From IMG/VR virus record IMGVR_UViG_2703718804_000005: DNA of 9,161 bases; one strand, written 5' to 3'. Origin of the DNA: a virus. Lineage: Duplodnaviria; Heunggongvirae; Uroviricota; Caudoviricetes. Below are positions 2,504 to 9,161 of this stretch, one piece after another (positions within the stretch are counted from its first letter, which is position 1; every line of letters starts with the position of its first letter). The notes beneath the pieces were generated by a model. That model was not told the origin of the DNA and did no database searches. It saw only the letters and a list, made by a program, of their open reading frames with translations. A program made the position numbers and the translations under genes.

Positions 2504-5500
2504 ATGGGTAAAGGCAGCAGTAAGGGGCATACCCCGCGCGAAGCGAAGGACAACCTGAAGTCCACGCAGCTGCTGAGTGTGATCGATGCCATCAGCGAAG
2601 GGCCGGTTGAAGGTCCGGTGGATGGATTAAAAAGCGTGCTGCTGAACAGTACACCTGTGCTGGACAGTGAGGGGAATACCAATATCTCCGGCGTCACGGT
2701 GGTGTTCCGGGCCGGTGAGCAGGAGCAGACACCGCCGGAGGGGTTTGAATCCTCCGGCTCCGAGACGGTGCTCGGTACGGAAGTGAAATACGACACGCCG
2801 ATCACCCGGACCATCACGTCGGCAAACATCGACCGTCTGCGCTTTACCTTCGGTGTGCAGGCACTGGTGGAAACCACCTCAAAGGGTGACCGGAATCCGT
2901 CGGAAGTCCGCCTGCTGGTTCAGATACAACGTAACGGTGGCTGGGTGACAGAAAAAGACATCACCATTAAGGGCAAAACCACGTCGCAGTATCTGGCCTC
3001 GGTGGTGGTGGATAACCTGCCGCCGCGACCGTTCAATATCCGGATGCGCAGGATGACACCGGACAGCACCACAGACCAGTTGCAGAACAAAACGCTCTGG
3101 TCGTCATACACCGAAATCATCGATGTGAAACAGTGCTACCCGAACACGGCACTGGTCGGCGTGCAGGTGGATTCGGAGCAGTTCGGCAGCCAGCAGGTGA
3201 GCCGTAATTATCATCTTCGCGGGCGCATTCTGCAGGTGCCGTCGAACTATAACCCGCAGACGCGGCAATACAGCGGTATCTGGGACGGGACGTTTAAACC
3301 GGCATACAGCAACAACATGGCCTGGTGTCTGTGGGATATGCTGACCCATCCGCGCTACGGCATGGGGAAGCGTCTCGGTGCGGCGGATGTGGACAAATGG
3401 GCGCTGTATGTCATCGGCCAGAATTGCGACCAGTCGGTGCCGGATGGCTTTGGTGGCACGGAGCCGCGCATCACCTGTAACGCTTACCTGACCACACAGC
3501 GCAAGGCGTGGGATGTGCTCAGTGATTTCTGCTCGGCGATGCGCTGTATGCCGGTATGGAACGGGCAGACGCTGACGTTCGTGCAGGACCGACAGTCGGA
3601 TAAGGTGTGGACCTATAACCGCAGTAATGTGGTGATGCCGGATGATGGCGCGCCGTTCCGCTACAGCTTCAGCGCCCTGAAGGACCGCCATAATGCCGTT
3701 GAGGTGAACTGGATTGACCCGAACAACGGCTGGGAGACGGCGACAGAGCTTGTTGAAGATACGCAGGCCATTGCCCGTTACGGTCGTAATGTCACGAAGA
3801 TGGATGCCTTTGGCTGTACCAGCCGGGGGCAGGCACACCGCGCCGGGCTGTGGCTGATTAAAACGGAACTGCTGGAGACGCAGACCGTGGATTTCAGCGT
3901 GGGTGCTGAAGGGCTTCGCCATGTACCGGGCGATGTCATTGAAATCTGCGATGATGACTATGCCGGTATCAGCACCGGTGGTCGCGTGCTGGCGGTGAAC
4001 AGCCAGACCCGGACGCTGACGCTCGACCGTGAAATCACGCTGCCATCCTCCGGTACCACGCTGATAAGCCTGGTTGACGGAAGTGGTAATCCGGTCAGCG
4101 TGGAGGTTCAGTCCGTCACCGACGGACTTAAGGTGAAAGTGAACCGGGTTCCTGACGGCGTTGCAGAATACAGTGTGTGGGGGCTGAAGTTGCCGACGTT
4201 GCGTCAGCGCCTGTTCCGCTGTGTGAGTATCCGTGAGAACGATGACGGCACGTATGCCATCACTGCCGTGCAGCATGTACCGGAAAAAGAGGCCATCGTG
4301 GATAACGGGGCGCACTTTGACGGCGACCAGAGCGGCACGGTGAATGGTGTCACGCCGCCAGCGGTGCAGCACCTGACCGCCGAAGTCACCGCAGACAGCG
4401 GGGAATATCAGGTGCTGGCGCGCTGGGACACGCCGAAGGTGGTGAAGGGCGTGAGTTTCCTGCTCCGTCTGACCGTAACAGCGGATGACGGCAGTGAGCG
4501 GCTGGTCAGCACGGCCCGGACGACGGAAACCACATACCGCTTCAGGCAACTGACGCTGGGGCGTTACAGGCTGACAGTCCGGGCGGTAAATGCGTGGGGA
4601 CAGCAGGGCGATCCGGCATCGGTATCGTTCCGGATTGCCGCACCGGCAGCGCCGTCGCGGATTGAGCTGACACCGGGGTATTTTCAGATAACTGCCACGC
4701 CGCATCTTGCGGTTTATGACCCGACGGTGCAGTTTGAGTTCTGGTTCTCGGAAAAACGGATTGCGGATATCAGGCAGGTTGAAACCACAGCCCGCTATCT
4801 TGGCACGGCGCTGTACTGGATAGCTGCCAGTATCAATATCAGGCCGGGCCATGATTATTATTTTTACGTTCGCAGTGTGAACACCGTTGGCAAATCGGCA
4901 TTCGTGGAGGCTGTTGGTCAGCCGAGTGATGATGCATCCGGCTATCTGGATTTTTTCAAAGGCGAGATAGGAAAAACCCATCTGGCTCAGGAGCTGTGGA
5001 CGCAGATTGATAACGGTCAGCTGGCGCCTGATCTGGCTGAAATCAGGACGTCCATTACGGATGTCAGCAATGAAATCACACAGACCGTCAATAAGAAACT
5101 GGAAGACCAGAGTGCGGCAATTCAGCAGATACAGAAGGTTCAGGTTGATACAAATAATAACCTGAACAGCATGTGGGCTGTGAAGCTGCAGCAGATGCAG
5201 GACGGACGCCTTTATATCGCGGGTATTGGTGCCGGTATTGAGAACACCCCTGACGGCATGCAGAGTCAGGTGCTGCTGGCGGCGGACAGGATTGCGATGG
5301 TTAATCCTGCGAATGGCAACACAAAACCGATGTTTGTTGGTCAGGGCGATCAGATATTCATGAACGACGTGTTCCTGAAGCGCCTGACGGCCCCCACCAT
5401 TACCAGCGGCGGCAATCCCCCGGCCTTTTCCCTGACACCGGACGGAAAGCTGACGGCGAAAAATGCGGATATCAGTGGCAGTGTGAATGCGAACGCCGGG

Positions 5501-5983
5501 ACGCTCAATAATGTCACGATTAATGAGAACTGTCAGATTCTGGGAAAACTGTCAGCTAATCAGATTGAAGGCGATATTGTTAAAACGGTGGGTAAGGCTT
5601 TCCCCCGTGACTCCCGGGCACCGGAGCGGTGGCCGTCAGGGACCATTACCGTCAGGGTTTATGACGATCAGCCTTTTGACCGGCAAATTGTCATTCCGGC
5701 GGTGGCATTCAGCGGTGCCAGACATGAGAGAGAGCATAATGACATTTATTCATCATGCCGTCTGATAGTGCGGAAAAACGGTGCTGAAATTTATAACCGT
5801 ACCGCGCTGGATAATACGCTGATTTATACAGGTGTGATTGATATGCCAGCGGGTCGCGGTCACATGACGCTGGAGTTTTCGGTATCAGCGTGGCTGGTGA
5901 ATGACTGGTATCCCACGGCAAGCATCAGCGATTTGCTGGTTGTGGTGATGAAGAAATCCACAGCCGGTATCAGTATCAGCTGA
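2504..5983 (+). CDS. J: Central tail fibre / host specificity protein J (tip attachment protein)
   Basis: 1159-aa ORF starting [42 protein letters not shown], lambda gpJ-like in length and sequence character. It carries FN3-like segments around residues 620-800 and a helical Q/N-rich segment ([53 protein letters not shown]). SD-like GGAG/GAGGA lies upstream of ATG 2504; position follows I. Confidence 0.95.
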
Positions 5984-6002
5984 ATGTTCAGAAACCAGAC
6001 CG

Positions 6003-6030
6003 GGTGCCAGAAATGGCACCTTTTTTATTT
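6003..6030 (+). terminator. Rho-independent terminator between J and stf
   Basis: GGTGCCA (6003-6009), loop GAAA (a GNRA tetraloop), TGGCACC (6014-6020): a perfect 7-bp GC-rich stem followed immediately by TTTTTTATTT (6021-6030). It lies 20 nt after the J stop codon. Confidence 0.8.
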
Positions 6031-6041
6031 GTGGAACGAAT

Positions 6042-8627
6042 ATGGCAGTAAAGATTTCAGGCGTGCTGAAAGACGGTGCAGGTAAACCGGTACAGAACTG
6101 CACCATTCAGCTGAAAGCAAAACGTAACAGTACCACGGTGGTGGTGAACACGGTGGCCTCAGAAAATCCGGATGAAGCCGGGCGTTACAGTATGGACGTT
6201 GAGTACGGCCAGTACGGTGTCATCCTGCTGGTTGACGGTTTTCCGCCTTCACATGCCGGCACCATCACCGTGTATGAAGATTCTGAGCCGGGGACGCTGA
6301 ATGATTTTCTCGGTGCCATGACGGAGGATGATGCCCGTCCGGAGGCACTGCGCCGTTTTGAGCTGATGGTGGAAGAGGTGGCGCGTAACGCGTCCGCAGT
6401 GGCACAGAACACGGCAGCCGCGAAGAAGTCAGCCGGCGATGCCGGAACATCTGCCCGTGAGGCGGCAACCCATGCGACTGATGCTGCGGACTCAGCACGC
6501 GCCGCCAGCACGTCCGCCGGACAGGCTGCGACGTCAGCACAGGAAGCATCTTCCGGCGCAGAAACAGCCTCAGCAAAGGCCGCTGAGGCATCAAAAAGTG
6601 CTGCCGCTGCAGAGTCCTCAAAAAGCGCGGCGGCCACCAGTGCCGGTGCCGCGAAAACGTCAGAAACGAATGCGGCAGCGTCACAACAATCAGCCGCCAC
6701 GTCTGCATCCACCGCGACCTCGAAAGCGTCAGAAGCTGCCACGTCAGCCAGGGATGCGGCGGCCTCAAAAGAGGCGGCAAAATCATCAGAAACGAGCGCA
6801 GCCTCGAGCGCCGGTAGCGCAGCTTCCTCGGCAACGGCGGCAGGAAATTCCGCGAAGGCGGCAAAGACGTCTGAGACGAACGCCAGGTCTTCTGAAACGG
6901 CAGCGGAACAGAGTGCCTCCGCAGCAGCAGGCTCAGAAACTGCCGCTGCATCATCGTCCCGTGAGGCGTCAGTTAAAGCGGAGGAGGCCTCAGCCAGTGC
7001 CACCGCCGCCGGAAAATCGGCAGAAAGTGCCGCATTGTCCGCTTCAGCAGCCACAACGAAGGCTGGCGAAGCCACTGAACAGGCCACTGCAGCAGTGAGG
7101 TCTGCTTCCGCTGCGAGGACATCCGAGACGAACGCGAAAGCGTCGGAAACCCGTGCAGAATCTTCAGAAACGGCTGCCGTATCGTCCGCCAGTTCGGCGG
7201 CGTCATCAGCATCATCGGCGTCAGCTTCAAAAGATGAGGCGGCAAGGCTGGCGTCAGAGGCGCAGGGCAGTGCCACGACGGCATCCGCGAAGGCGACAGA
7301 GGCAGCTGGCAGTGCGACAGCGGCAGCACAGAGCAAAAGCACGGCAGAATCTGCGGCAACGCGCGCCGAGACTGCGGCAAAACGGGCGGAGGATATTGCA
7401 TCTGCCGTGGCGCTTGAGGATGCGAGCACGACGAAAAAGGGGATAGTCCAGCTCAGCAGTGCAACCAACAGTACATCTGAAACACTTGCCGCGACACCAA
7501 AGGCCGTAAAAGCCGCCTGTGAGAATGCTGAGAAACGACTGCAGAAAGATAAGAACGGTGCGGATGTCCCCGACAAAGACACCTTTACGAAAAATATTGG
7601 TGCCTGCCGTGCCTTCGGTGGGGCCGTAAGCACAACGACAGGAGACTGGACGACCGCACAGTTTATCGGGTGGCTGGATTCTCAGGGCGCATTTAACCAC
7701 CCATACTGGATGTGCAAGGGCTCCTGGTCTTACGGTAATAATAAAATCATCACGGATACGGGCTGCGGAAATATTCATCTCGCCGGCGCTGTCATTGAGG
7801 TGATGGGGATAAAGTCAGCGATGACGATCCGCATAACCACACCGACAACATCCAGCGGAAGTGGAACGGCGAATGCGCAGTTTACCTATATTAATCATGG
7901 TGATGGTTATTCCCCTGGCTGGCGTCGTGACTACAACACGAAAAACAAGCCACCGGCCTTTGCGCTGGGAAAAACCGGGGAAACGCTCGCCGATACAGAT
8001 GCCGTCGCCTGGAACCTGGACAGTGGCGCTTATTGTGCACAGGATGGTGGCGCATCATCCTTAATTCTTCATTTTAATACAGGGGAAGGCAGCTGCCCCG
8101 CGGTCCAGTTTCGGGTGAATTACCGGAATGGCGGGATATTTTACCGCTCCGCCCGTGATGGCTATGGCTTTGAGGCGGACTGGGAGCGTCTGTTCACGAC
8201 AACGGGCGGGACCCTGGAAGGTGCTGTGGGTATCGGTGCACAGAATACGCTGGGCGGCCATTCACTTGCGCTGGGGAGGGGCGACACAGGCCTGAAACAA
8301 AACGGCGACGGTAATCTTGATGTTTACGCCGGTAACGCACGTGTAATGCGCTTTACAAACGGCAGCATTCAGGTCAGTAAAGGGCTGAATGTGTCCGGGC
8401 GCGTTAATCCTTCCGATTACAGTAATTTTGATATCCGCTATGTCAGGGATATCCGGCTGGGCACGCGTGTTGTTCAGGGCATGCAAAAAGGCGTGACGTA
8501 TGAGAAATCCGGCCATGTCATTACGGGGCTTTGTCTTGTCGGGGATGCTGATGGCGATAACTCAGCGGTTTACCGGCCGGTGCAAAAATACATAAACGGC
8601 ACATGGTTTAACGTATCGCAGGTATAA
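6042..8627 (+). CDS. stf: Side tail fibre protein (Stf-like): conserved N-terminal tail-attachment region, Ala/Ser/Thr-rich shaft, divergent C-terminal distal domain
   Basis: 861-aa ORF. The N-terminus MAVKISGVLKDGAGKPVQNCTIQLKAKRNSTTVVVNTV...DGFPPSHAGTITVYED is lambda Stf-like from memory. The widely shared fibre junction motif GIVQLSSATNSTSETLAATPKAVK is encoded at 7440-7511. The gene sits downstream of J and is followed by tfa. Confidence 0.9.
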   Translation: MAVKISGVLKDGAGKPVQNCTIQLKAKRNSTTVVVNTVASENPDEAGRYSMDVEYGQYGVILLVDGFPPSHAGTITVYEDSEPGTLNDFLGAMTEDDARPEALRRFELMVEEVARNASAVAQNTAAAKKSAGDAGTSAREAATHATDAADSARAASTSAGQAATSAQEASSGAETASAKAAEASKSAAAAESSKSAAATSAGAAKTSETNAAASQQSAATSASTATSKASEAATSARDAAASKEAAKSSETSAASSAGSAASSATAAGNSAKAAKTSETNARSSETAAEQSASAAAGSETAAASSSREASVKAEEASASATAAGKSAESAALSASAATTKAGEATEQATAAVRSASAARTSETNAKASETRAESSETAAVSSASSAASSASSASASKDEAARLASEAQGSATTASAKATEAAGSATAAAQSKSTAESAATRAETAAKRAEDIASAVALEDASTTKKGIVQLSSATNSTSETLAATPKAVKAACENAEKRLQKDKNGADVPDKDTFTKNIGACRAFGGAVSTTTGDWTTAQFIGWLDSQGAFNHPYWMCKGSWSYGNNKIITDTGCGNIHLAGAVIEVMGIKSAMTIRITTPTTSSGSGTANAQFTYINHGDGYSPGWRRDYNTKNKPPAFALGKTGETLADTDAVAWNLDSGAYCAQDGGASSLILHFNTGEGSCPAVQFRVNYRNGGIFYRSARDGYGFEADWERLFTTTGGTLEGAVGIGAQNTLGGHSLALGRGDTGLKQNGDGNLDVYAGNARVMRFTNGSIQVSKGLNVSGRVNPSDYSNFDIRYVRDIRLGTRVVQGMQKGVTYEKSGHVITGLCLVGDADGDNSAVYRPVQKYINGTWFNVSQV
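6390..7440 (+). repeat. Low-complexity Ala/Ser/Thr-rich degenerate repeat region encoding the stf shaft
   Basis: About 350 codons dominated by GCN/TCN/ACN/GAR codons. The unit (A)-K/R-T-S-E-T-N-A recurs at 6651-6680, 6861-6887 and 7113-7136, spaced 210 and 252 nt apart (70 and 84 codons, both multiples of 7). The region is free of stops in all three forward frames and on the antisense strand. Confidence 0.6.
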
Positions 8628-8630
8628 GTA

Positions 8631-9161
8631 ATGCAGCACTTAAAAAATATTACAGCAGGTAATCCCAAAACCGTTGCTCAGTATCAACTGACAAAAAATT
8701 TTGATGTTATCTGGTTGTTTTCAGAGGACGGAAGAAACTGGTATGAAGAAGTGAGTAACTTTCAGAAAGACACAATAAAGATGGCTTACGATGAAAACAA
8801 TATTATCGTTGCCATCACCCGGGATGCCTCAACGCTTAATCCGGCGGGATTAAGTGTTGTTGAGGTGGCAGATATAACGGCGAACCGCCGTGCAGACGAT
8901 TCGGGGCAGTGGATGTATCTGGACGGTCAGGTGAGGAAACGCGAGTATTCGTCAGAGGAAGTCAACAGACAGACAGAGCAACGCAAGGCCACGCTGCTCA
9001 GTGAAGCAGATACCATCATCCGGCTTCTGGAGCGGTCGGTAAGGCTGAGTATGGCCACGGAAGAAGAGCGAACCCGGCTGTCGGCATGGGAGCGTTACAG
9101 CGTCCTGCTCAGCCGGGTGGATTCAGCGAACCCGGAATGGCCACAAAAGCCAGAGCAGTAA
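8631..9161 (+). CDS. tfa: Tail fibre assembly protein (Tfa-like chaperone)
   Basis: 176-aa ORF immediately after stf (3-nt gap), with AGGT 8 nt upstream of the ATG. The C-terminus [33 protein letters not shown] matches the conserved Tfa C-terminal motif as I remember it from lambda Tfa (of the form LEAWKKYRVLLNRVD...EWP). The stop codon TAA is the last three bases of the window. Confidence 0.85.

Follow-up and report, generated by a model that had tools for sequence, protein, structure and literature searches.

Which outer-membrane receptor is recognized by the tail tip protein J of a lambdoid prophage whose C-terminal region departs from that of lambda? The question was raised by a stretch of 9,161 nucleotides (nt) from IMG/VR virus record IMGVR_UViG_2703718804_000005 (Caudoviricetes), hereafter referred to as the window, in which gene J lies at positions 2504 to 5983. 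An original prediction, made from the sequence letters alone, had taken a fall in guanine-plus-cytosine (GC) content along J, a protein longer than lambda gpJ and a substituted C-terminus as signs of altered receptor specificity. Judged by sequence comparison, J is a three-module mosaic, composed of a lambda-like part (amino acids, aa, 1-815), a phage 21-type part (aa 816-960) and, beyond a conserved joint, a tip of the 1A2 class (aa 1009-1159), which points to OmpC as the probable receptor.

Mosaic structure of J

The gene and its modules are as follows.

2504-5983 (+): gene J, tail tip attachment / central fibre protein, intact, 1159 aa (open reading frame, ORF; lambda_TipJ; Pfam order)
2504-4948 (+), aa 1-815: hub domains and two fibronectin type III (FNIII)/immunoglobulin (Ig) domains, lambda-type (identity; Pfam FNIII-A_GpJ, Phage-tail_3, Ig_J, Ig_J_second)
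4949-5383 (+), aa 816-960: variable alpha-helical shaft and upper beta-prism fibre, 'long' (phage 21-type) form (identity pattern; domain names from PMC11101478)
5384-5527 (+), aa 961-1008: conserved joint (lower fibre) linking the shaft and tip modules (77-98% aa identity, eight comparators)
5528-5980 (+), aa 1009-1159: receptor-binding domain (Ig-like), 1A2 / 640R1 / O157-prophage class (Pfam, identities)

The modules were delimited by the aa identity of eight comparator J proteins to window J, which was calculated over four segments (aa 1-815, 816-960, 961-1008 and 1009-1159, in this order).

Lambda: 97%, 43%, 94%, 44%
Phage 21: 98%, 96%, 88%, 66%
Lambda h434: 97%, 44%, 90%, 43%
Stx2a_WGPS2: 73%, 61%, 79%, 93%
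vB_EcoS-640R1: 98%, 99%, 94%, 93%
Stx2 phage 1717: 76%, 98%, 77%, 63%
2H10: 98%, 43%, 98%, 62%
PhiR42_1: 98%, 98%, 92%, 42%

The segment identities were mutually incongruent over the eight comparators; the window tip class, for example, was carried on a 73%-identical N-terminus in WGPS2. Every combination of N-terminus, shaft and tip class occurs, so that the modules assort independently of one another. In the nucleotide comparison, identity to lambda collapsed near 4930-4965, amounted to 8-43% between 4964 and 5143, recovered to 95-98% at 5384-5503 and went down again from about 5504 (breakpoint near 5504-5563). Further, the synonymous divergence (dS) between the window and 640R1 was 0.15 in aa 1-815 and 0.50 in the tip, and the parts of J thus have separate histories. 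The ratio of nonsynonymous to synonymous divergence (dN/dS) in the tip was 0.065 against 640R1, indicating purifying selection and conserved function within the tip class. The joint holds the equivalent of lambda aa 964, which has been described as the 'last stretch of identity' and is where the gpJ chimeras were joined (PMC11338833).

The tip class and its relatives

The DNA of 1A2 and A8 was taken from the supplement of Brödel et al. (Nature 2024), an optical character recognition (OCR)-damaged text with indels, and a frameshift-tolerant protein-to-DNA alignment was used. Over the last 191 aa of window J, 166 of the 184 readable codons were identical to 1A2 (90.2%, a lower bound owing to the OCR damage) and there were no indels, whereas identity to A8 was 70%. 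The natural relatives fell on the same two sides, with 640R1 being 94% identical to 1A2 and the 2H10 tip 97% identical to A8. By identity and indel pattern in the segment after lambda aa 964, the window tip belongs to the 1A2 class, at 93% identity to both 640R1 and WGPS2. Tips of the A8/phage 21 type have 4 residues fewer at the lambda-1012 site and 5 more at the lambda-1048 site; the window tip carries neither of these indels and is 62-66% identical to that type. The structure entry PDB 9wca ('A8 gpJ 713') aligns through the last residue of J.

The window tip is not of the lambda, LamB-binding type, either: compared with lambda J 960-1132, the 'specificity region', identity was 44% over aa 1009-1159, and a one-residue indel relative to lambda adjoins the lambda-1107 hotspot. 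Near-identity to the lambda tip had been named beforehand as the finding that would overturn the predicted exchange, and the comparison showed the opposite. The C-terminal peptide quoted in that prediction was found in J, and its description as lambda-related yet substituted agrees with identities of 44% over aa 1009-1159 and 97% over aa 1-815.

This tip class is shared, at 90-95% protein identity, by many Shiga toxin (Stx)-converting/O157-type prophages, PPompW prophages, 640R1 and PhiR47_1; PhiR46_1 and PhiR55_1, like PhiR47_1, also carry it. With coverage of at least 80% of the tip (5528-5983) required, matches came from 3347 of the 5426 complete E. coli genomes, and most were 80-95% identical. 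The precise sub-allele (at least 99% identity) was present in 28 records, compared with 1835 at 90-95%, and represents a minority sub-lineage. The J of VT1-Sakai, an Stx1 prophage, has the same tip class (nucleotide identity to 4700-5983 of 90.6%); in its annotation, a mutation splits the gene into two truncated coding sequences, and this copy is probably defective.

Receptor prediction

When the 1A2 segment was grafted after lambda aa 964, delivery to MG1655 with EDL933 ompC reached 98.7% of the cells at a multiplicity of infection (MOI) of 232, whereas 1A2 particles delivered to about 5% of wild-type MG1655 (LamB+, K-12 OmpC) at an MOI of 50 (PMC11338833). Because the efficiency follows the ompC allele, the grafted 1A2 segment suffices for a switch from LamB to OmpC, in an allele-specific manner. 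A8 particles work on both OmpC types, and A8 and 1A2 jointly cover 21 of the 23 OmpC variants tested (PMC11338833). Since the window tip is homologous to that of 1A2, window J most likely uses OmpC, of the EDL933-like type, rather than LamB. In regard to the altered receptor specificity that had been proposed, the swapped tip module is real (44% identity to lambda, with a 1A2 relative that uses OmpC), and the receptor itself is assigned by homology.

By analogy with lambda, for which a mechanism of docking, twisting and opening has been described (PMC11101478), the three tip domains of the J trimer would dock on a trimeric outer-membrane porin, most likely EDL933-like OmpC and not LamB. The twist set off by docking would travel up through the fibre and the shaft and open the tail tip for DNA ejection.

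Several points weigh against the OmpC assignment. LamB serves phage 21 as its native receptor, and one J mutation is enough for it to use OmpC as well (PMC11336670); tip similarity is an imperfect guide to the receptor because the phage 21 tip is about 81% identical to that of the OmpC-using A8. The window tip allele differs from 640R1 at ten positions, and the OmpC dependence of this tip class is known from 1A2. Among the differences, D1134 of the window is replaced by N in 640R1, WGPS2 and 1A2. The lambda residue aligned with it, 1107, is a natural indel hotspot and, together with one other residue, is universally required when lambda gains OmpF use in the laboratory (PMC6646904); R1073K and H1078N (window to 640R1) flank another known indel hotspot. 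In addition, because the PDF that supplied the 1A2 sequence is OCR-damaged, the identity to 1A2 is somewhat uncertain and is to be taken as a lower bound. Moreover, 1A2 was assayed on the short-shaft backbone of lambda, whereas window J has a long shaft, and the longer shaft may affect triggering.

These substitutions bear directly on the possibility that the tip binds OmpF or another porin, or OmpC alleles other than those of 1A2, owing to 10-12 substitutions. Such a shift would be in line with D1134 at the specificity position equivalent to lambda 1107, with the further changes flanking the indel hotspots and with the minority status of the exact allele (28 records at 99% or more versus 1835 at 90-95%), but the dN/dS of 0.065 within the class, at a dS of 0.50, speaks for conserved function and no indel separates the tip from that of 1A2, so that we consider it unlikely, though of some weight. 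To the same limited degree, the sub-allele with D1134, R1073 and H1078 might recognize OmpC variants other than those of 1A2, or another porin; if true, it would be a natural case of fine receptor retargeting inside one tip class.

It is decidedly improbable that the tip still binds LamB as in lambda and phage 21, with substitutions that track LamB alleles or represent neutral drift. The 1A2 tip, at least 90% identical to that of the window, fails on LamB+ MG1655 and becomes efficient once the ompC allele alone is exchanged (PMC11338833). The window tip, furthermore, has 44% identity to lambda and indels relative to phage 21 at known hotspots, although phage 21, with a tip 66% identical to the window's, does use LamB natively (PMC11336670) and very few mutations can change the receptor in the lambda-type J family (PMC11336670, PMC6646904).

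Two further sources were considered for receptor data and set aside. The SNIPE paper on the PhiR phage collection (PMC13190303) tests ManYZ dependence, not outer-membrane receptors, and a 2026 receptor-prediction preprint concerns gpJ of Drexlerviridae, not lambda-type tips.

GC content along J

The GC-rich 5′ part and lower-GC distal part that had been noticed in J were reproduced: GC was 0.594 (0.723 at third codon positions, GC3) at 2504-4699 and 0.516 (GC3 0.584) at 4700-5983 (chi-square p = 7e-6). The two AT-rich runs singled out as examples are real but are not the lowest in the gene; the run 5101-5170 had a GC of 0.443 (6th percentile of 70-nt windows in J) and the run 5740-5850 a GC of 0.423 (1.3rd percentile of 111-nt windows in J). 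The best single change point is located as follows.

4678 (aa 725; no strand): best single GC change point, maximum-likelihood; GC 0.596 upstream, 0.513 downstream

In lambda J, the best change point was likewise at aa 725 (GC 0.593 to 0.532), and each of the nine J genes that were compared had a lower GC in its distal segment. As the same change point in lambda indicates, lambda-type J genes share the GC drop in their distal part, and it is no recombination scar of the window gene. Its use as a clue to the receptor therefore did not hold, given that the shift is family-wide, present in lambda as well, and precedes the divergence by about 90 codons.

It is hardly credible that the whole distal part of J was recently acquired by horizontal transfer from a donor of lower GC, which would account for the GC drop and the AT-rich runs together. 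The size of the drop (0.594 to 0.516, p = 7e-6) and the clear exchange of the tip module would fit such an event. However, the change point at aa 725 is found also in lambda, the drop occurs in all nine J genes, including aa 725-805 segments that are 97-100% identical to lambda, and the shift lies about 250 nt ahead of the first recombination breakpoint, within sequence that is 90-100% identical to lambda. The GC shift was accordingly rejected as a mark of recent acquisition, on the grounds of the lambda change point and of the drop in nine of nine J genes.

Extra length of J

The lengths given in the original prediction, 1159 aa for window J (ORF 2504-5983) and 1132 aa for lambda J (NC_001416), were confirmed. 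The additional residues map to a single region.

5009-5101 (+), aa 836-856 and 860-866: 28 residues absent from lambda J (BLASTP and MAFFT gaps)

The net gain of 27 aa results from these 28 extra shaft residues minus a one-residue deletion in a tip loop. The extra residues fall in the unmodelled gap between Pfam Ig_J_second, which ends at aa 818, and Phage_Tail_Tip, which starts at aa 872 in window J and at aa 845 in lambda J. The corresponding part of lambda is called the alpha-helical shaft in cryo-electron microscopy work (PMC11101478), a name that is assigned here by sequence position. If helical, the 28 residues would equal four heptads, or roughly 4 nm.

The long shaft is also found in phage 21, 640R1, 1717, PhiR42_1 and WGPS2, and it is the norm, the NCBIfam lambda_TipJ model itself having 1163 positions. 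It is paired with three tip classes (the window's, phage 21/A8-like and h434), and the short shaft is paired with the lambda, h434 and A8 tips. Since both shaft forms combine with several tip classes, shaft length is independent of tip class, and by this pattern of pairings the extra length is unrelated to receptor choice. The length had been offered as a second receptor clue, which falls away with its placement in the shaft. An origin of the extra length in the receptor-binding domain was rejected for the same two reasons, namely that it maps to the shaft and that both shaft forms occur with several tips.

The GC drop and the protein length of lambda-type J proteins should thus be regarded as uninformative on the receptor.

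Identity and genomic setting of J

J is an ordinary intact lambda-type tail-tip gene of an E. coli prophage, and its protein has already been annotated. NCBIfam NF049904 (lambda_TipJ) matched J with 2379.6 bits (cut-off 1950), aligning aa 1-1159 to model positions 1-1163 of 1163. Six Pfam domains follow one another as they do in lambda J, namely FNIII-A_GpJ, Phage-tail_3, Ig_J, Ig_J_second, Phage_Tail_Tip and Ig_GpJ_C, the last of which, the C-terminal receptor-binding domain, covers aa 1029-1159. In virions, J would probably form a trimeric tail tip and central fibre, as suggested by the 97% identity to lambda over aa 1-815 and by the PDB matches.

The window represents the distal tail module of a lambdoid prophage, its context being a complete prophage. 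The tail-module order is lambda-like (M-L-K-I-J-stf-tfa), with J after I and before the side tail fibre genes, as shown by the ORFs, by the RefSeq annotation of a near-identical prophage and, for stf and tfa, by Pfam. Compared with the prophage of E. coli ARS-C301, which adjoins a truncated ydfJ, 2 of the 9161 bases differed. The sole difference in J was synonymous, so that its product is identical to WP_062877997.1, which RefSeq names 'phage attachment tail tip protein J'. In gene I (ORF 1802-2443), position 2384 belongs to a CAG (Gln) codon in the window and to a TAG codon in the ARS-C301 prophage. Gene I is intact in the window, with 213 aa from the first ATG and a C-terminus as in lambda I, whereas it is shortened in the ARS-C301 RefSeq genome, where the annotation pipeline PGAP ends the gene at the TAG stop.

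Other features of the window

Downstream of J, a terminator-like element was identified.

6002-6031 (+): intrinsic terminator-like hairpin (6002-6021) and T-run after J, homologous to the phage 21 J-stf spacer with its annotated terminator

The stem is GGGTGCC…GGCACC in the window and GGGCGCC…GGCGCC in phage 21, a compensatory change of T-A to C-G. The J-stf spacer (5984-6041, 58 nt) contains no lom, as in phage 21, whereas lom is present in lambda, 640R1, WGPS2, 1717, 2H10 and PhiR42_1. Over 4600-6200 on both strands, the counts of promoter-like and terminator-like sequences corresponded to the shuffle expectation, except for the terminator after J. No minus-strand annotation was found in RefSeq across 4600-6200 of the ARS-C301 copy. 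The minus-strand ORFs 3104-4981, 5709-5921 and 5885-6106 were treated as spurious, RefSeq annotating nothing there; the first of them, which encodes 625 aa antisense inside J (-), probably arose as a side effect of the high GC3 (0.72) in that part of J.

The side tail fibre ORF (6042-8627, 861 aa) is uninterrupted and has a Pfam match in its first 134 aa only (phage_tail_N). Its middle part (about 6450-7650) shows a GC of 0.56-0.64 and a strong A-over-T skew of 0.33-0.41. The ARS-C301 copy of this gene is called a pseudogene 'missing C-terminus' by PGAP. The lowest GC of the window (0.41-0.45) was located at 8400-8850, where the side tail fibre gene ends (3′) and the tail fibre assembly gene (Caudo_TAP) starts; this region looks like another exchanged fibre-tip module.

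Relation to known systems

The exchange of the J tip in the window is an already known phenomenon, and the tip class has already been studied. For the J 'specificity region', work from 2018 on 1207 natural homologues described modular exchange, hypervariability, indel hotspots and a discordant phylogeny (PMC6646904), and with the window tip class lambda particles have been redirected to OmpC (PMC11338833). In practice, the outcome is a receptor prediction for the window prophage, namely OmpC, probably in its EDL933-like alleles; beyond annotation, the significance is small.

The closest system is 1A2 (Brödel et al., Nature 2024, PMC11338833), which resembles the window in tip class, indel pattern and C-terminal end, with at least 90% (about 93%) identity over the graft. 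Its natural counterparts are vB_EcoS-640R1, Stx2a_WGPS2, the PPompW prophages and VT1-Sakai. It differs from the window by 10-12 substitutions, including N at window D1134, and in the last residues, which read STAGISIS in the window and ATAGITIS in 1A2 and 640R1.

Lambda gpJ (P03749; PDB 8iyk, 8xcj and 8xck), which uses LamB, shares with window J the six-domain architecture, the genomic position and the GC change point. It has 28 fewer shaft residues and one extra loop residue in the receptor-binding domain, and lambda carries lom downstream of J, unlike the window. The J of phage 21 (OL657228, 1160 aa; native receptor LamB) is similar in its long shaft and in the arrangement of J, terminator and stf without lom, with a homologous spacer. 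Its tip, however, is 66% identical with indels and falls into the A8-like group.

For gpJ A8 (PDB 9wca/9wcb, 'A8 gpJ 713'), whose receptor is OmpC of both the K-12 and EDL933 types, the tip matches that of phage 2H10. This protein was the best PDB sequence match to window J (E = 3e-175), with an Ig-like tip and the last 20 residues identical to the window, but it differs in a tip identity of 62-70% and in a 4-residue deletion and a 5-residue insertion at hotspots. Lambda h434 J (OM418627) has the lambda-like N-terminus and the domain order in common with the window, while its short shaft and a tip identity of 43% set it apart as a separate class. That h434 J confers the use of OmpC, and that receptor choice resides in the C-terminal part of J, are classical findings (PMC3509688).

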